A stretch of 34,914 nucleotides of DNA from Spirochaetales bacterium. GTDB taxonomy: Bacteria; Spirochaetota; Spirochaetia; DTKZ01. Positions 4,225 to 34,914 of the stretch are shown here, piece after piece (the first letter of the stretch is position 1; each line of letters begins with the position of its first letter). The DNA lies in NCBI GenBank assembly GCA_031280945.1, contig JAITGB010000182.1:1-34914 (forward strand), given 5' to 3'. Made by a program: the position numbers and the translations under genes. The notes beneath the pieces were generated by a model that worked only from the letters and a program-made list of their open reading frames with translations, made no database searches and was not told the DNA's origin.

Positions 4225-4255
4225 TCAGTAAGAGTACAAGTTATAAGAAGAATAT

Positions 4256-4362
4256 GGGCGCATTTTTTGCGCTTTGCGCAAAAAACCGGGCTATCCGCTC
4301 CAATTCCTCAAAAATTGCCTTGCGGCAATTTTCTGCGGGATTTCCGCTTCTATCCCTTGCGC
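4256..4362 (+). repeat. structured intergenic repeat, copy 1 (short subfamily)
   Basis: GGGCGCA, then hairpin TTTTTTGCGC-TTT-GCGCAAAAAA, then CCGGGCTATCCGCTCCAATTCC, then hairpin AAAATTGCC-TTGC-GGCAATTTT, then GGATTTCCGCTTCTATCC and CTTGCGC. The same block order occurs in four other copies. Confidence 0.9.
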
Positions 4363-4402
4363 AAAGACCTATTACCCCGCAGCCTATAATCCGCGCCGGC
4401 AT

Positions 4403-19593: not shown

Positions 19594-20064
19594 TCACCAC
19601 CTGTAATGCGAAAAAGCCTTGTTCGCCTCCGCCATACGGTGCGTATCTTCCTTCTTTTTGAAGGCCGTACCCGTACTATTGTAGGCATCCAAAAACTCCG
19701 CCCCCAGCTTCTGGCTCAGGGCCTTGCCGCTCCTCGCCCGCGCCGCAGCAATAAGCCAGCGCATGGCAAGAGCCTCCCGCCGCGACTCACGGATTTCCAC
19801 AGGAACCTGATACGTCGCACCCCCAACCCGCCGGGACTTGACCTCCACCACAGGCTTTACATTGTCCAGGGCCTTGAGAAAAACCTCAAGCTCCCCCTTG
19901 TCCGCCTTGCCCTTTAGAAAATCGAGGGCGCCGTAGAGAATAGCCGCGCTGATGGACTTCTTGCCGTCCAGCATCATACGGGTAATAAACTTGGAAACAA
20001 CCATATTGTTGTACCGCGAATCGGGAATCGTCTCCCTCTTGGCAACTACTTTTCGTCTGGGCAT
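19594..20064 (-). CDS. rpsG: 30S ribosomal protein S7
   Basis: [20 protein letters not shown]... [14 protein letters not shown]... HYRW. Confidence 0.98.
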
Positions 20065-20077
20065 AAATTCCCCTCAC

Positions 20078-20452
20078 CTACGCCTTCGGCCTTTTGGAAC
20101 CATACTTGGAACGGCTCTTGCGCCTGTCCTCCACGCCCAGGGTATCTTTCGTACCCCGCACGATATGGTACCTCACGCCCGGCAAATCCTTCACGCGCCC
20201 CCCCCGGATAAGAACAACAGAATGTTCCTGCAAATTATGACCAATGCCCGGAATATAGGCCGTAACCTCAATACTATTACTGAGGCGCACACGCGCAACC
20301 TTGCGCAAAGCCGAGTTCGGCTTTTTCGGAGTGATGGTCATCACCCTCGTGCAGACCCCCCTCTTTTGCGGACAGTTCATAAGCGCCGGAGACTTCGTCT
20401 TTGAATGTGAACTCCTCCGCCCCGTCCGAATCAACTGATTAATCGTCGGCAT
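20078..20452 (-). CDS. rpsL: 30S ribosomal protein S12
   Basis: [13 protein letters not shown]... [18 protein letters not shown]... [18 protein letters not shown]. Confidence 0.99.
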
Positions 20453-20493
20453 ACAGAAAACAATCTCCTACAAAAATGCTGTGTAACTGAAAG

Positions 20494-20522
20494 AAAATAG
20501 CGGAAATTCTTTTTTGTGTCAA
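20494..20522 (-). promoter_or_regulatory. candidate rpsL-rpsG promoter
   Basis: Minus strand: GCTCTTGACAC with TTGACA at 20522-20517, a 17-nt spacer, then TATTTT at 20499-20494, about 40 nt upstream of the rpsL ATG. Confidence 0.55.
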
Positions 20523-20556
20523 GAGCGAAGAGCAAATTTTTTAAGAATTCGGATGT

Positions 20557-20709
20557 GGGCGCATTTTTTACGGCCTGCGGCCGTAAAAAACCGGGCTATC
20601 CGCTCCAATCCAGCGGATTTTGCAAAGCAAAATCCGCAAGGATTTCCGCTTCTATCCAGGCTGCATGGACGAGCAGCAATCCGTAAGGATTGCGACCAGT
20701 CCCTTGCGC
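20557..20709 (+). repeat. structured intergenic repeat, copy 2 (long subfamily with extra hairpin module)
   Basis: GGGCGCA, then TTTTTTACGGCC-TGC-GGCCGTAAAAAA, then CCGGGCTATCCGCTCCAATCC, then GCGGATTTTGC-AAA-GCAAAATCCGC, then GGATTTCCGCTTCTATCC. An insert follows that contains GCAATCC-GTAA-GGATTGC, and then CTTGCGC. Confidence 0.9.
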
Positions 20710-20717
20710 GGCGACAC

Positions 20718-20749
20718 GGCTTCCCCGAACGGGGAAGCCACGTCTTTTT
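20718..20749 (+). terminator. terminator-like hairpin on the plus strand, 9 nt after repeat copy 2
   Basis: GGCTTCCCC-GAAC-GGGGAAGCC followed by ACGTCTTTTTC. There is no plus-strand CDS upstream that it could terminate. Confidence 0.55.
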
Positions 20750-20884
20750 CATTTACACGCTAGCCCGAAAGCCGTATACTAGTCTTATATATGAAGATTC
20801 CCGCGAAAGCCAGCCGGAAAACCGCCTGTTTACAATCTTCTTCCGGTTTTTTCAAAGAATTTTCACATAATTTTCAAAAAACGC

Positions 20885-20913
20885 TTGCCAAAAAGAAAGA
20901 ATTTATATATAAT
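20885..20913 (+). promoter_or_regulatory. promoter of the Fur-family regulator / rubrerythrin module
   Basis: TTGCCA (20885-20890), exactly 17 nt, then a perfect TATAAT (20908-20913), 38 nt before the ATG. Confidence 0.65.
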
Positions 20914-20932
20914 AGTAATAGTTATTATTATT
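20911..20932. promoter_or_regulatory. AT-rich palindromic operator candidate (Fur/PerR-box-like)
   Basis: AATAGTAATA-GT-TATTATTATT, with 9 of 10 positions complementary. It overlaps the -10 hexamer and the expected +1, and runs into an (ATT)4 tract. Confidence 0.5.
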
Positions 20933-20951
20933 ATTTTGAGGAAAAGAGAAG

Positions 20952-21344
20952 ATGATGCCAGGAAAGAAGCACAGTAAAAAACGGGACGCAATCCTGCGGG
21001 CCATACAATCAACCCAGCTTCATCCGGGAGCCCAGTGGGTGTACGACACCCTCAAGCCTGAGATTCCCGGCCTGTCCCTGGGCACCGTGTACCGGAACAT
21101 CAGCCTTTTCCTGAAAGAAGGAGAAGTGGTGTCGGTCGGAGTTGTTGGCGGCGAGGAGAGGTTTGACGGCCGCGTTGAGCCCCACCCCCACGCGGTGTGC
21201 CTCCGGTGCGGCAGCGTTACGGATATTCCCGGCATAGATGACGCGGCGCGGAACCTTCTCGCACACGGCGGGGCCCCCAAGGGCTTTCGCATCGATTACA
21301 CAAAGACTGTTTTCTATGGTCTTTGCGGAGCCTGCTCCTCATGA
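20952..21344 (+). CDS. Fur-family transcriptional regulator (PerR-like, by context)
   Basis: 130 aa. The winged-helix part is RDAILRAIQSTQLHPGAQWVYDTLKPEIPGLSLGTVYRNISLFLKEG. HPHAVCLRCG ... GLCGACS gives the CxxC..CxxC structural Zn site typical of Fur/PerR/Zur. It is adjacent to rubrerythrin. Confidence 0.85.
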   Translation: MMPGKKHSKKRDAILRAIQSTQLHPGAQWVYDTLKPEIPGLSLGTVYRNISLFLKEGEVVSVGVVGGEERFDGRVEPHPHAVCLRCGSVTDIPGIDDAARNLLAHGGAPKGFRIDYTKTVFYGLCGACSS

Positions 21345-21412
21345 GAAAGGCCCCCTGCATTAGGTAATTCCCGCGGCCCTGCCGCGGATATAATTTTTTT
21401 GGAGGTATCGTT

Positions 21413-21955
21413 ATGAAAAAATGGGTTTGTTCAGTCTGCGGCTATGTTCACACCGGAGACAAAGCGCCGGACGCTTGTCCGCAGTGCAAAGCCCCCGCGG
21501 CCAAGTTCAAGGAACAGGTAGCCGGAGAAACTTTTGCGGCGGAACACGTTGTCGGCGTTGCAAAGGATGTGGAAAACGACATCAAGAGCGACCTGCAGGC
21601 TCACTTTAACGGTGAGTGCTGCGAAGTGGGCATGTACCTGGCCATGAGCCGTGTCGCCGAGCGCGAGGGTTATCCCGAAGTTGCGGAAGCCTACAAGCGC
21701 TACGCTTTTGAGGAAGCCGAACACGCCGCGAAATTCGCGGAGCTTTTGGGCGAGGTAATTACCGCCAGCACAAAGAAGAACCTGGAACTGCGCATTGAGG
21801 CTGAACACGGCGCCTGTGCGGGAAAAACCGACATCGCCAAGCGCGCCAAAGAAAAAGGCTACGACGCCATTCACGACACCGTGCATGAAATGGCCCGTGA
21901 CGAAGCCCGGCACTGCTCGGGATTCAAAGGTCTTTTGAAAAGGTATTTCGCCTGA
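21413..21955 (+). CDS. rbr: reverse rubrerythrin (N-terminal rubredoxin-like Cys4 domain, C-terminal diiron four-helix bundle)
   Basis: [15 protein letters not shown] lies at the N-terminus. The diiron ligand motifs follow: [31 protein letters not shown]. Confidence 0.9.
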
Positions 21956-22007
21956 AAGTCAGACTATTTTTTTGAAAGTAAAAAAGTTTTTGTTGTAAAA
22001 AAGTGAG

Positions 22008-22046
22008 AAAAAAGCGCGGGGCCCTGTTTGGGCCCCGCGTGAATTT
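22008..22046. terminator. bidirectional intrinsic terminator shared by rbr (+) and rpoC (-)
   Basis: CGCGGGGCCC-TGTTT-GGGCCCCGCG (10-bp GC stem, 22015-22039). An A-run on its left gives CTTTTTTCTC on the minus strand, and T-rich TGAATTTGTTTTC lies on its right. Confidence 0.8.
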
Positions 22047-22088
22047 GTTTTCGCTTTATGCGTACTGTAATGGTTTCTGTCCGCCCGT

Positions 22089-22209
22089 GGGGCGCAAGGG
22101 ATAGAAGCGGAAATCCCGCAGAAATCGCCGCAGGCGATTTTGAGGAATTGGAGCGGATAGCCCGGCCCTGTCCTTTTTCGCCGGGGCGGAAAAGGGCGGG
22201 GGTGCGCAC
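22089..22209 (-). repeat. structured intergenic repeat, copy 3 (short subfamily), between the rpoC stop and its terminator
   Basis: The reverse complement reads GTGCGCA, CCTTTTCCGCC-CC-GGCGAAAAAGG, CCGGGCTATCCGCTCCAATTCC, AAATCGCC-TGC-GGCGATTT, GGATTTCCGCTTCTATCC, CTTGCGCCCC. Confidence 0.9.
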
Positions 22210-22233
22210 AAATTCACTTCCCGAAAATTCTTT

Positions 22234-25200
22234 CTACTCGTCCTCAGAGTCGTCGTAATCGGCTGCCTCGGCAGGCGCGCCTTCCTGGACGTTCTGCAAA
22301 ACTTCTTCCCGCATAAGCAGTTCCGCATCTTCGCGCTCTTTGCGTTTGGCTTCGAGGATAATCTGCATCTGCGTGTCGAGGTCTTCTTCGTTCTCGTCGT
22401 AGAGCTTCAAGGCGCGGTACTTTCTCATGCCTGTACCCGCGGGGATGGGGTGGCCGATGATGACGTTTTCCTTGAGGCCGCGCAGGTAATCGGTGCTGCC
22501 GGCTATGGCCGCGTTGGTAAGAACGCGGGTTGTCTCCTGAAAGGACGCTGCGGAGAAGAACGAGTCGATGTTGAGCGAGGCCCGCGTGATTCCCAAAAGG
22601 AGCGGGCGGCCTATCGCGGGCTGGCCGCCTTCGCGCACGACTTTCGCGTTTTCTTCGTGGAAGCGGTGTTTGTCTACGTGCTGGCCGAAGATAAAGTTCG
22701 TGTCGCCCACAGAGGTGATTTCCACTTTGCGCATCATCTGGCGCACGATAACGCCTATGTGTTTGTCGTCTATGCCGACGCCCTGGAGCCTGTAGACTTC
22801 CTGCACTTCGTTCATCATAAAACTCTGGAGGGCGTTTTCGCCCAGGATTTGCAGTATGTCGTGCGGGTCCATACTGCCGTCGCACAGGGGTTCGCCCGCT
22901 TCCACCGCATCTCCTTCGCGCACAAGGAGGTGGCGGCCCATGGGCACGAGGTGCTTAAACTCTTTGCCGAAGGCGTCTTCCACAACAATAACTCTTTTTG
23001 CCTTGACGATTCCCTTAAAGTGTACGACGCCGGATATTTGCGCGAGTATGGCCGCTGTTTTGGGCCGCCGCGCTTCAAAGAGTTCGCCGACACGGGGAAG
23101 TCCTCCGGTGATGTCCCGCGTTTTCACGCTTTCCTTCAGGAGTTTCGCTATAATGCGGCCCGCTTTGATTTTGTCGCCGTCATTTATGTTGAGGTACGAT
23201 GAGCCGGGAAGGTGGTACACGGCAAGCTCGTCGCCTTTTTTGTCCATGATGCGTATGCGGGGCTGGAGGCTTTCGCTTGTGTAGTCGGTAATTTTTTTCT
23301 CGATGTTTCCCGTGTCTTCGTTGATTTCTTCCTTGAGCGTTGTGCCCAGGATAATGTCGTCAAACTCTACGAGGCCGTCAAACTCTGCGATGATGGGTTC
23401 GCTAAAGGGGTCAAACGAGGCTATTGTCTGTTCGGCGGGAAGCACTTCGCCTACTTTAACGTGCAGGGTCGCTCCGTTTCGTACTTCTACTTTCTGTTCC
23501 TGCGCGATGAGGTAAATCCTGCTCCTGTCTTTGGCAACCAGGACGTACGCGTTGTGCCCTGAGTGAATCTCGCTTCCTTCCCTGCGCAGGACGTTCTGGC
23601 CTTTTACAACTTTGTCTCCGTCATGGAAGTGCAGGCGGTCGCCTTTCTGGAGTTCCAGGGATTCGAGGATGCGGCTTACCATGACGTAGCCCCGGCGGGT
23701 GAAGAGGTGTTCGCCGTTTTCCAGCGTTACGGTTGCCCCAAGAATTCCTTTGATAATAACCGGATATTTGAGGTAAATCTTGTTTTCTTCCGAGGCTTTT
23801 GTCGCGGCTCCTCCTATGTGGAAGGTTCTCATGGTAAGCTGTGTTCCCGGCTGTCCTATGGACTGCGCGGCGATGATGCCCACAGCTTCGCCTATTTCCA
23901 CGGTTTTGTTGGTGGCAAGATTCCGTCCGTAGCATTTTTTGCATACGCCGTACTGCGCTTCGCAGGTGAGTACGGTTCTTATGCGTACGCTTTCTATGCC
24001 GGCGGCTTCGATGATTTCCGCTTTTTCGTTGGTGATAAGCTGGTTTACGTCAACGATGACTTCGCCTGTTATGGGGTGCTTCACGCGCTCCAGGGTAAAA
24101 CGGCCTTCGATGCGGTCCGCGAGGGTTTCGACTATTTCTTCGCCGTCTTTCAGGGCCTGCATTTCAAGGCCGTTGATTGTGCCGCAGTCATCTTCGTTGA
24201 CAACAACGTCCTGCGCTATGTCCACGAGGCGGCGGGTGAGGTAGCCCGCGTCCGCTGTTTTGAGGGCTGTGTCCGCAAGACCCTTGCGCGCTCCGTTTGT
24301 TGAGATAAAAAACTCAATTACGGAAAGCCCTTCCTTGAAGTTGGAGCGGATGGGAAGCTCTATAATGTCTCCTGAGGGTTTTGCCATGAGGCCGCGCATA
24401 CCCGCAAGCTGGCGAATCTGGCTGCGCGAGCCGCGCGCTCCTGAGTTCGCCATCATGTACACGGGGTTAAAGCCGCCCTGGTCTTCCTTGAGTTCGCGCA
24501 TCATTTCGTTTGTAAGGTCTTCGTTGGTTTTGGACCAGACTTCGACAACGCGGTTGTAGCGTTCTTCCTGTGTGATGTGGCCGTGCTGGTACTGCTTTTG
24601 GATTTCGGCGACTTCGGCGTTGGCTTTTTCTATCATTTCCTTTTTAATGCCGGGAATAAGTACGTCTTCTACGCCTATGGTGGCGCCGAAAACCGTTGCG
24701 TATTTAAAGCCGAGGTCTTTAATCGCGTCGAGCATCTTTACGGTGATGTAGGAGCCCTGTTCTTCGTAGGCTTTTGCGATGATGTTTTTGATTTCCTTGT
24801 CGCCCAGGGTGTGGTTGATATAGCCGATTTCGTCGGGAAATTCCTCATTCATAATGAGGCGGCCCGCCGTGGTTTCAAGGAGCTTTCCCTTGTAGGGCAG
24901 TTTGATAAGGGCTCCGTACTCTATGGCGCCTGCGTCCAGCGCGAGAAGGACTTCTTCCGCTCCGCTGAATCTTTTTCCTTCGCCTTTTGCCCCGATTTTT
25001 TCTTTGGAGAGGTAGTACATGCCCAGAACAATGTCCTGCGAGGGGAAAACAACGGGTTTCCCGTTGGCGGGGTTCATGAGGTTTTTCGCGGAGAGCATGA
25101 GGGACCAGCACTCAATCTGGGCGGCCTGCGTCAGGGGAACGTGAACCGCCATTTGGTCTCCGTCAAAGTCCGCGTTAAAGGCGTGGCAGACCAAGGGGTG

Positions 25201-26514
25201 CAGCTTGATGGCCTTGCCGTCAACAAGCACGGGTTCAAACGCCTGAATTCCGAGGCGGTGCAGTGTGGGCGCTCGGTTTAAGAGAACAGGGTGTTCTTTT
25301 ACAACGTCGTCCAGAATCTGCCAGACTTCCGGGCTTTCAGTTTCAACGAGGGTTTTGGCTTTTTTGATGTTATAAACAACGTCTTTTTCAACGAGTTTTT
25401 TCATAATAAAGGGCTTGTAGAGTTCAAGAGCCATTTTTGTGGGAAGTCCGCACTGGTGGAGTTTTAACTCTGGCCCCACGACTATAACGGAGCGTCCTGA
25501 GTAGTCAACGCGCTTACCCAAAAGGTTCTGGCGAAAACGGCCCTGCTTTCCTTTGAGCATATCCGACAGGGATTTGAGGGGCCTGTTGGAAGCGCCTTTT
25601 ACAACCCTTTTCTTTTTGGAGTTGTCAAAGAGGGCGTCCACCGCTTCCTGAAGCATACGCTTTTCGTTGCGGATAATAATGTCGGGCGCGTTTAAGGCCA
25701 TGAGCCTTTTGAGGCGGTTATTTCTGTTAATAACGCGGCGGTAGAGGTCGTTGAGGTCGCTTGTGGCAAAACGGCCTCCGTCAAGCTGAACCATGGGCCT
25801 GAGTTCCGGCGGAATAACGGGCACAACGTCGAGAATCATCCATTCGGGTCTGTTGTCTGAATCGCGGAAATTTTCCACGATTTCTATGCGCTTTAAGAGG
25901 CGTTTATCGGCCTTGGCTCCCTTTCCTACCATTACAACGCGCAGCTCAGAGGAAAGGGCGTCAAGGTCAAGCCCTTCAAGAAGGACGCGAACCGCTTCGG
26001 CGCCTATGCCCGCGGTAAAAGACATTCCGTAGCGTTCCTTGGCCTCGTTGTAGTCTTCCTCCGTAAGGAGTTCCATTTTCTTCAGGTCGGTATCGCCCGG
26101 GTCAATAACAATATATTTTTCGTAGTAGAGTACCGAGCGCAAAGAGGCGATTGTGAGGTCAAGGAGGAGCCCCATGCGCGAGGGGACGGAGCGGTAATAC
26201 CAGATGTGCGAAACAGGAGAAGCGAGTTCTATGTGGCCCATTCTTTCGCGGCGCACTTTGAAGTGCGTAACTTCAACGCCGCAGCGGTCGCAGATTACGC
26301 CCTTGTAGCGTATCGATTTAAACTTGCCGCAGTAGCATTCCCATTCCTTTGTGGTGCCGAAGATGCGCTCGCAAAAGAGCCCGTCCTTTTCCGGCCTCAG
26401 GGTACGGTAATTGATTGTTTCAGGCTTCTTGACTTCTCCATAGCTCCACGCCCGGATTTTCTCCGGCGATGCGAGCTGAATCATAATGGAATCGAAATCC
26501 TGAATGTCTCTCAT
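22234..26514 (-). CDS. rpoC: DNA-directed RNA polymerase subunit beta'
   Basis: 1426 aa with [12 protein letters not shown] catalytic motif and an N-terminal Zn-finger [20 protein letters not shown]. Confidence 0.99.
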
Positions 26515-33620: not shown

Positions 33621-33665
33621 GAGCACAAATTCCGGGGGATACAGGGCCAGCTCATATAAACTTTT

Positions 33666-33770
33666 GGGGCGCATTTTTTGCCGCTGTACGGCAAAAAACC
33701 GGGCTATCCGCTCCAATTCCTCGGAATTGCTCCGCAATTCCTGCGGGATTTCCGCTTCTATCCCTTGCGC
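33666..33770 (+). repeat. structured intergenic repeat, copy 4 (short subfamily)
   Basis: GGGGCGCA, then TTTTTTGCCG-CTGTA-CGGCAAAAAA, then CCGGGCTATCCGCTCCAATTCC, then GGAATTGC-TCC-GCAATTCC, then GGATTTCCGCTTCTATCC and CTTGCGC. Confidence 0.9.
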
Positions 33771-33950
33771 GGACGGGGGCTCCGCCCCTGAACCCCCGCC
33801 GGGAGGCCGAAAGGCCCCCCCAGACCCCCACAAAAAGTTTATATGCGCTCGCCCTGTTGCCTCATGAAAAATGTTACCGAAAAAGGCGAATGCCTCAAAT
33901 AGAAAATGTTACCCAAATTAAAGTAAGGACGCCTGAAGGAGGGAGTCCTG

Positions 33951-34652: not shown

Positions 34653-34747
34653 CGCACTATGTATGCTAAATTAGGAGTCATGGTAAGGGGCAGTGATATT
34701 TGCCTCCACTACAAAAAATTAAATTGCGTGAAGCGCAAAGAGCCCGT

Positions 34748-34914
34748 GGGGCGCAAGGGTTTTGCTCCGATTTTATCGGTTCGCTGAAGCGAACCGCAGT
34801 GTCGCAAAACCAGTGGATAGAAGCGGAAATCCTTGCGGATTTTGCGAAGCAAAATCCGCTGGATTGGAGCGGATAGCCCGGTTTTTTGCCTTGCGGATTT
34901 TGCGGAGCAAAATC
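34748..34914 (-). repeat. structured intergenic repeat, copy 5 (long subfamily), 5' part cut by window end
   Basis: The reverse complement reads ...GCAAAATCCGCAAGGCAAAAAA, CCGGGCTATCCGCTCCAATCC, GCGGATTTTGC-TTC-GCAAAATCCGC, GGATTTCCGCTTCTATCC. An insert follows with GGTTTTGC...GGTTCGC-TTCA-GCGAACC...GCAAAACC, and then CTTGCGCCCC. Confidence 0.85.

Follow-up and report, generated by a model that had tools for sequence, protein, structure and literature searches.

PerR-repressed operons that carry a rubrerythrin gene (rbr) together with perR are a described arrangement in Clostridioides difficile (bioRxiv 10.1101/2024.09.17.613384). The Flavo-1 RNA motif (Rfam RF01705; Weinberg et al. 2010, PMC2864571) has matches in Flavobacterium that lie sense or antisense to transcripts, or outside transcripts (PMC9723704). 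Here we analyse a locus at which relatives of both are found together: in a contig of 34,914 nucleotides (nt) from a Spirochaetales bacterium (the window, contig C90), the spacer between rpoC and rpsL holds a Fur/PerR-like gene and a reverse rubrerythrin gene, with an inverted pair of Flavo-1-type repeats around them. The window belongs to a metagenome-assembled genome (MAG), G000, of 1.66 Mb in 280 contigs and about 60% completeness. It was compared with three congeners (G001, G002 and G003), so that four species of the genus are represented, and with 36 outgroup genomes of the class, including 8 from the family's three other genera; all the compared genomes are fragmented MAGs.

Our preferred reading, to which we give a probability of about 0.68, is that the ancestor of the genus acquired a peroxide-defence operon on a single occasion, and that the Flavo-1 copies beside it belong to a general colonisation of the genome, in which they most likely act as recombination hot spots. 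The operon and the repeat are both of known kinds; what is unusual is the position of the operon and the scale of the genus-specific expansion of the repeat.

Like rbr-perR-rbo of C. difficile, the operon sets a candidate Fur-family peroxide sensor beside a rubrerythrin, with a sigma-70-type promoter and an AT-rich, palindromic, Per-box-like site, and, as in PerR-controlled operons of anaerobes, all PerR metal ligands are conserved. Unlike the C. difficile operon, it runs perR then rbr, encodes a rubrerythrin with reversed domains, lacks desulfoferrodoxin, lies in a spirochaete between rpoC and rpsL, and has a PerR that scores below the NCBIfam equivalog cut-offs.

The repeat shares with the Flavo-1 RNA motif a long hairpin whose distal stem varies and whose internal loops hold two conserved boxes (GAUAGAAGCGGAAAUCC / GGAUUGGAGCGGAUAGCC), and, as in Flavobacterium, its copies stand in either orientation to genes. 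Unlike the Rfam model, the core is embedded here in a longer modular element (AAgaaTTT-GGGCGCA, a T6-hairpin-A6, the two-box Flavo-1 hairpin, CTTGCGC and variable GC-rich hairpins), and, unlike known Flavo-1, it occurs in hundreds of copies and in one spirochaete genus only among the 41 genomes sampled. With repetitive extragenic palindromes (REPs), bacterial interspersed mosaic elements (BIMEs) and miniature inverted-repeat transposable elements (MITEs) it has in common that it is short, palindromic, high-copy and strictly intergenic, in both orientations, often in inverted pairs and at synteny breakpoints; it differs from them in that no REP-associated tyrosine transposase (RAYT) could be tied to it, no target-site duplication is definable and, with at least three hairpins, it is more elaborate.

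Gene gain at the rpoC–rpsL junction

The junction of rpoBC with the str operon is one of the most conserved gene neighbourhoods of bacteria. The premise of the original prediction, a reading of this DNA from its letters, was that rpoC is normally followed directly by rpsL, and this is correct for the class: the two genes lie no more than 500 nt apart on one contig in 32 of the 36 outgroup genomes, and 79–99 nt apart in all eight genomes of the family's other genera. In the window, the spacer from the rpsL start (20452) to the rpoC stop (22234) measures 1,781 bp, exactly 20453–22233, and its two genes are on the plus strand, opposite to rpoC and rpsL; the genes and coordinates predicted for this perR-like and reverse-rubrerythrin module were confirmed (PF01475; PF21349 with PF02915). 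A close relative of rbr (E ≤ 1e-10) is present in all three congeners, at 89–91% identity, and in none of the eight genomes of the family's other genera. When synteny at the junction was compared, the module was absent from it in the family outgroups and adjoined rpoC, as rbr–perR, in G000, G001 and G003. Because rpoC and rpsL are tightly spaced in the outgroups and rbr is limited, within the family, to this genus, perR–rbr is, on sequence comparison, a genus-specific insertion at an otherwise conserved junction. Spirochaetia bacterium MS502-68 has both module genes together (64% and 82% identity) with unrelated flanks; the pair travels as a unit.

Part of the older arrangement can still be recognized. 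The TTGACA and the −10 of the rpsL promoter are invariant in nine genomes, and in the outgroups this promoter starts about 5–30 nt past the rpoC stop; the rpsL promoter of the window (20494–20522) is what remains of the ancestral rpoC–rpsL spacer. A single acquisition in the ancestor of the genus would thus have entered the short stretch that separates the rpoC stop from the rpsL −35, a site that may tolerate insertion because rpsL retains its own promoter, and the module would since have adapted fully to the genome. A separate gene gain at the same place in another family of the class, where an opposite-strand, lipoprotein-like open reading frame of 209 amino acids occupies a 1.26-kb rpoC–rpsL gap without Flavo-1 (genome G033, locus L107, C88:3500–5400), argues that the junction itself tolerates insertion.

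GC content and codon usage, which the original prediction had put forward for comparison with the flanking genes, are native-like in perR–rbr and so uninformative on recent transfer. By codon adaptation, rbr stands at the 99th percentile for this genome, on a level with rpoC and tuf, and perR at the 73rd. The native-like composition together with the rank of rbr points to an old acquisition and to a rubrerythrin gene that is probably highly expressed.

The features of the junction, in window coordinates, are as follows.

19594–20064, minus strand: rpsG (ribosomal protein S7); PF00177, E 8e-60.
20078–20452, minus strand: rpsL (ribosomal protein S12); PF00164, E 2e-41; 94% identity to the rpsL of the congeners.
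20494–20522, minus strand: rpsL promoter, TTGACA-17-TATTTT; promoter scan, 10 of 12 matches.
20545–20709, plus strand: repeat copy 2; Rfam Flavo-1 RF01705 at 20585–20666 (minus strand), 49.5 bits; nhmmer E 2e-14.
20718–20749, plus strand: terminator-like hairpin with a T-run just inside copy 2, predicted by a terminator scan.
20885–20913, plus strand: promoter of the perR–rbr operon, TTGCCA-17-TATAAT; 11 of 12 matches.
20916–20939, plus strand: AT-rich, Per-box-like operator directly after the −10, from a motif search.
20952–21344, plus strand: PerR-like Fur-family repressor of 130 amino acids; PF01475, 7e-19.
21413–21955, plus strand: reverse rubrerythrin of 180 amino acids; PF21349 at residues 4–33, PF02915 from residue 62.
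22014–22040, both strands: bidirectional intrinsic terminator common to rbr (plus) and rpoC (minus); GC stem of 10–11 bp with T-runs on both strands.
22092–22209, minus strand: repeat copy 3, inverted relative to copy 2; Flavo-1 at 22075–22171 (plus strand), 35.1 bits, E 5.5e-4; nhmmer E 1.8e-20.
22234–26514, minus strand: rpoC (RNA polymerase beta′ subunit); five Rpb1 Pfam domains.

The minus strand of the window as a whole carries rpoB, rpoC, rpsL, rpsG, tuf and the S10 cluster.

A candidate peroxide-defence operon

On the evidence of its sequence, the module is probably an ordinary, self-contained and autoregulated operon for defence against peroxide or oxygen. The promoter and the terminator that the original prediction had assigned to it were both recovered, the former with its −35 and −10 kept in all four species of the genus, the latter as a GC-rich hairpin with T-runs on both strands. 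Across the 35-kb window, the only matches to the Per-box consensus TTATAATNATTATAA with three or fewer mismatches fall in the candidate operator at 20916–20939, and the block ATAATA(G/A)T(T/A)A(T/C)TATTATT within this region is conserved in the four species.

The first gene product has the Fur-family fold (PF01475, 68.5 bits against a cut-off of 23.1). Among the NCBIfam models, two for PerR score highest, above those for Fur; both scores are below the equivalog cut-offs (NF052545, 88.4 against 180 bits; NF047406, 83.2 against 200), and for this reason we call it PerR-like. Its closest match in the PDB is Bacillus subtilis PerR (2fe3, E 5e-18), with all metal ligands aligned: CLRC and CGAC pair with C96/C99 and C136/C139 of the structural zinc site, and the regulatory site H37, D85, H91, H93 and D104 (B. 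subtilis numbering) is conserved in the aligned segments HPGAQ, RFD, HPH and PGIDD. We take the roles of the residues in the regulatory site to be those established for PerR. Another Fur-family gene lies at a second locus of G000 (C176:8517–9024), beside a rubredoxin-like N-terminal segment with 59% identity to residues 1–37 of the rubrerythrin.

The second gene product begins with a rubredoxin-like Cys4 domain (CSVC and CPQC), whose residues 3–33 align with residues 154–185 of the rubrerythrins 1ryt and 1b71, and continues with a diiron, ferritin-like part, of which residues 59–175 align with residues 10–126 of rubrerythrin 9fj2. As the rubredoxin part comes first and the diiron part second, in reversed order relative to classical rubrerythrins, the protein is a reverse rubrerythrin.

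A sigma-70-type promoter overlapped by a Per-box-like AT palindrome would thus drive a PerR-type repressor and a reverse rubrerythrin acting as a peroxidase, and transcription would stop at the terminator common with rpoC. If it works like the PerR-controlled rbr operon of C. difficile, the repressor would sit on the operator, and presumably control its own operon, until metal-catalysed oxidation by H2O2 frees the operator; the rubrerythrin would then reduce H2O2 to water.

A Flavo-1-type repeat expanded within one genus

RF01705 matches each of the five repeat copies in the window, and does so on the strand that is opposite to what the original prediction had taken as plus. Against the Flavo-1 gathering score of 42 bits, copy 2 lies above and copy 3 below, the latter being of full length. 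Copy 2 is composed of the left end AAGAATTC..GGGCGCA (GGGCGCA at 20557–20563), the T6-hairpin-A6 (20564–20590), an A box (20591–20609), a variable hairpin, a B box (20640–20657), an inserted module of 45 nt (20658–20702) and CTTGCGC (20703–20709). Copy 3 reads GCGCAAG (22092–22098), B box (22099–22116), A box (22147–22165), an atypical left hairpin and TGCGCAC (22203–22209). The 45-nt module of copy 2 (AGGCTGCATGGACGAGCAGCAATCC...GGATTGCGACCAGTCC) recurs in at least eight other copies, and also in tandem on contig C238.

In G000, 141 of the 150 scored Rfam candidates (625 at first look) match Flavo-1, with 23 copies above the gathering score. The two conserved boxes give 192 and 205 hits, which resolve into 176 complete units, and an nhmmer profile gives 192 hits, for an overall estimate of about 190–200 copies in the assembly. 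In each of the three congeners, 87 of 87 scored Rfam candidates match Flavo-1, and the same Rfam search found none in the eight genomes of the family's other genera. A-box patterns hit 557 times in G001, 226 times in G002 and 1,634 times in G003, against 1–3 in the control, counts that are inflated up to two-fold because the second box also fits the pattern.

The consensus of the left end is AAgaaTTTGGGCGCA. Virtually all copies are intergenic and in either orientation; relative to the flanking genes, 36 lie in the same direction, 19 opposite, 23 between convergent and 19 between divergent genes. The density is about one copy per 8 kb, with a copy in about 9% of all intergenic gaps and about one-third of convergent or divergent borders. 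Because the intergenic copies occur in all gene contexts and in both orientations, a DNA-level repeat of the REP or MITE kind fits better than a strand-specific RNA. A Flavo-1-type hairpin element would thus have expanded to hundreds of copies within this genus, the copies beside the module being part of that general colonisation.

Larger and smaller units can be seen around the core. At window positions 33630–33868, copy 4 and a GC-rich tail lie inside an inverted repeat of 36 nt (CAGGGCCAGC.CATATAAACTTTT), and the left and right flanks of this copy recur around other copies (about 10–30 blastn hits in the genome), which outlines a larger MITE-like unit with a Flavo-1 core. In three species, the A/T-rich left end of the element (AAAAAAGAATTTGGGCGC) precedes the rpsL −35 by about 35 nt (window 20523–20563; L001, 2500–2545; L005, 1290–1330), and an outward TTGACA stands near this end in other copies too; the left end may act as an UP-like element, or may just prefer promoter-proximal sites. 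Contig ends in G000 cluster just past the CTTGCGC side of copies (45 against 24), and in G003 the first hits near a contig start are in minus orientation in 27 of 33 cases. Arrays of GC-rich hairpins with poly-G and poly-C tracts on the CTTGCGC side seem to break assemblies.

Traces of a Y1/HUH transposase accompany some copies. A partial, IS200-like gene of this kind (C230:4079–4319 in G000), interrupted by the end of its contig, begins about 95 nt past the CTTGCGC (inner) end of a Flavo-1-type copy. Its leader and first 12 codons (MTPNLAYIVRYP) are seen again beside copy 5 (window 34660–34760, minus strand), where the remnant, at about 34660–34697, is cut off by a DDE-transposase relic, and the leader recurs in shortened form after more than 15 other copies. 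No close homologue of the Y1 gene was found in the incomplete assemblies of G001 or G003, which hold most copies. The IS200-like genes of G002 and G003 were considered as the transposase of the element and set aside, since they have ordinary ends without Flavo-1 elements.

Repeat copies and changes of gene neighbourhood

The original prediction had offered two accounts of the repeats: ends of an inserted cassette, or recombination and insertion hot spots at operon borders. The second stands, on circumstantial evidence, and the first does not. The locus differs in all four species, with repeat copies where synteny ends, and repeat copies are for this reason most likely substrates or hot spots for recombination rather than transposon ends. 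G000, G001 and G003 all have the left end of the element about 35 nt upstream of their rpsL −35, and each has different DNA beyond it: G000 has perR, G001 a second inverted copy with three unrelated genes, and G003 other DNA. Upstream of perR, a copy occupies the same position and orientation in the same three species, and the gene beyond it is rpsL in G000, GH57-like in G001 and nitroreductase-like in G003. G002 has a peptidase gene after rpoC and a TelA-like gene after rbr. The neighbouring genes of G001 have homologues on other contigs of G000. The copy on the rpsL/perR side would thus be old, having the same position in three species, and the copy on the rpoC side was found only in this genome; copies that mark points of rearrangement in sister species would have served as substrates for exchange.

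In the copies upstream of perR (window 20564–20641; L002, 3340–3440; L006, 1020–1125), both variable hairpins have entirely different stems that are still self-complementary. Such differing stems at one position point to replacement among copies or to rapid compensatory change.

Several points weigh against our preferred reading. The rearrangements in the congeners are deduced from contigs of fragmented MAGs that end or diverge, and the order of events is inferred from parsimony against the outgroups. The ends of the inserted DNA coincide within about 25–35 nt with the outer (GGGCGCA) ends of both inverted copies, as a cassette would predict; the distance to the rpoC stop is 24 nt on one side, and that to the rpsL −35 about 35 nt on the other. 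Furthermore, copies that neighbour each other at close range nearly always form inverted pairs (all 9 within 2 kb).

The repeats might instead have arrived by coincidence, the module having entered through illegitimate recombination and the copies having been inserted later and independently, with no role in the variability of the locus. The high density of the repeat and the restriction of copy 3 to this genome are in keeping with this account, as are copies 1 (4252–4367) and 4 (33666–33773), whose positions are orthologous in congeners and, for copy 1 in G002, lie within unbroken synteny; copies are therefore long-lived and do not always break synteny. We nevertheless hold it to be unlikely, as every change of neighbour at the locus in the four species falls at a repeat copy, and the left end by the rpsL promoter is kept in three species with different DNA beyond it, as expected for exchange within or beside the element.

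That the two inverted copies are the working ends of a cassette, resembling a composite transposon or a MITE pair, which carried perR–rbr into the spacer, is rather improbable. The geometry from which the idea came is real: the copies at about 20545–20709 (plus) and 22092–22209 (minus) face inward with 1,383 bp between their inner CTTGCGC ends, and the same arrangement surrounds the transposase relic (33666–33773, plus; 34804–34890, minus). Moreover, pairs within 2 kb face inward in 7 of 8 cases with regex-defined elements and in 6 of 9 with nhmmer-defined ones, and, together with the coincidence of the outer ends with the inserted DNA, this is what a cassette would give. As in composite transposons, genes lie between inverted copies of a repeat; unlike in composite transposons, the flanking units have neither a transposase nor a target-site duplication, and, at this junction in congeners, a single copy flanks these genes.

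The original prediction had named relatives with the module but without repeat copies, and inward pairing no more frequent than chance, as findings that would speak against a cassette. A right-hand repeat would be expected wherever the module sits, yet in G001 and G003, where rbr–perR adjoins rpoC, none of Rfam, box patterns and a genus-trained profile detects a repeat core in the gap from rbr to rpoC; on these sequences, copy 3 either is peculiar to this genome or has been lost on two occasions. Divergence among the rbr–rpoC spacers of the four species prevents their alignment, so that the insertion point of copy 3 is undefined to base level. In MS502-68, no repeats lie near the module. The search for a target-site duplication outside 20557 and 22209 found none: the flanks 20533–20556 and 22210–22233 have only AAGAATT/AATTCTT in common, which is the left-end consensus of the element and is inverted, not direct. 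No transposase could be tied to the element in these incomplete assemblies either, the sole Y1 gene fragment beside a copy being the one without a close homologue in G001 or G003.

Genome-wide pairing tells the same way. Among the 38 neighbouring pairs on one contig in G000, 11 face inward, 15 outward and 12 are direct (inward against 25%, binomial P = 0.34), so that the inward bracketing of the module is no more than chance. Orientation statistics from G003 were set aside, as they came from an incomplete list of hits without mismatches, in which contigs with a copy at each end predominate, an assembly effect. Inverted neighbours in G000 outnumber direct ones overall (26 against 12, P = 0.03) and within 2 kb (9 against 0, P = 0.004). 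Recombination would remove close direct repeats along with any genes lying between them and leave inverted pairs in place, and an inverted bracket around one or two genes would then be the expected form of any close pair. One other inward pair, on C219, encloses a FliG-like gene found in 12 of 12 genomes of the family, and the other inward pairs enclose unrelated genes. The flanks of the C74 and C219 blocks showed no synteny even within the genus.

In a further variant, which we regard as doubtful, Flavo-1-type inverted pairs define exchangeable or invertible blocks of genes, perR–rbr being one captured block. If the variant were true, Flavo-1 would be a DNA-level signal for recombination or mobilisation, possibly served by a Y1/HUH enzyme, that reshuffles gene order across a spirochaete genus.

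Finally, a chimeric assembly through the repeat, which would mean that rpsL is not truly beside the module, is very improbable: rpsL adjoins perR in G000 only and many of the 280 contigs of this 60% complete assembly end in repeat copies, but a chimera would have had to recreate the ancestral neighbourhood by chance (rpoC and rpsL within 1.8 kb and in their ancestral relative orientation), and copy 2 has hairpin stems of its own and the 45-nt inserted module, a combination that may be unique in the genome.

Implications

An operon acquired once in the ancestor of the genus, beside repeats that probably act as recombination hot spots, thus remains our preferred account, and it has two sides, neither of which is field-changing; both are useful for annotation and for studies of Flavo-1. 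The locus is a worked example of the still-unexplained Flavo-1 motif as a high-copy, intergenic DNA repeat at synteny breaks. The behaviour of the motif here bears on whether Flavo-1 deserves the status of an RNA gene. The operon, for its part, is a clean marker, and one that can be dated, of gene gain in a genus of uncultured spirochaetes, and its gain between rpoC and rpsL, with an rbr whose codon usage is like that of a highly expressed gene, suggests selection for tolerance of peroxide or oxygen.

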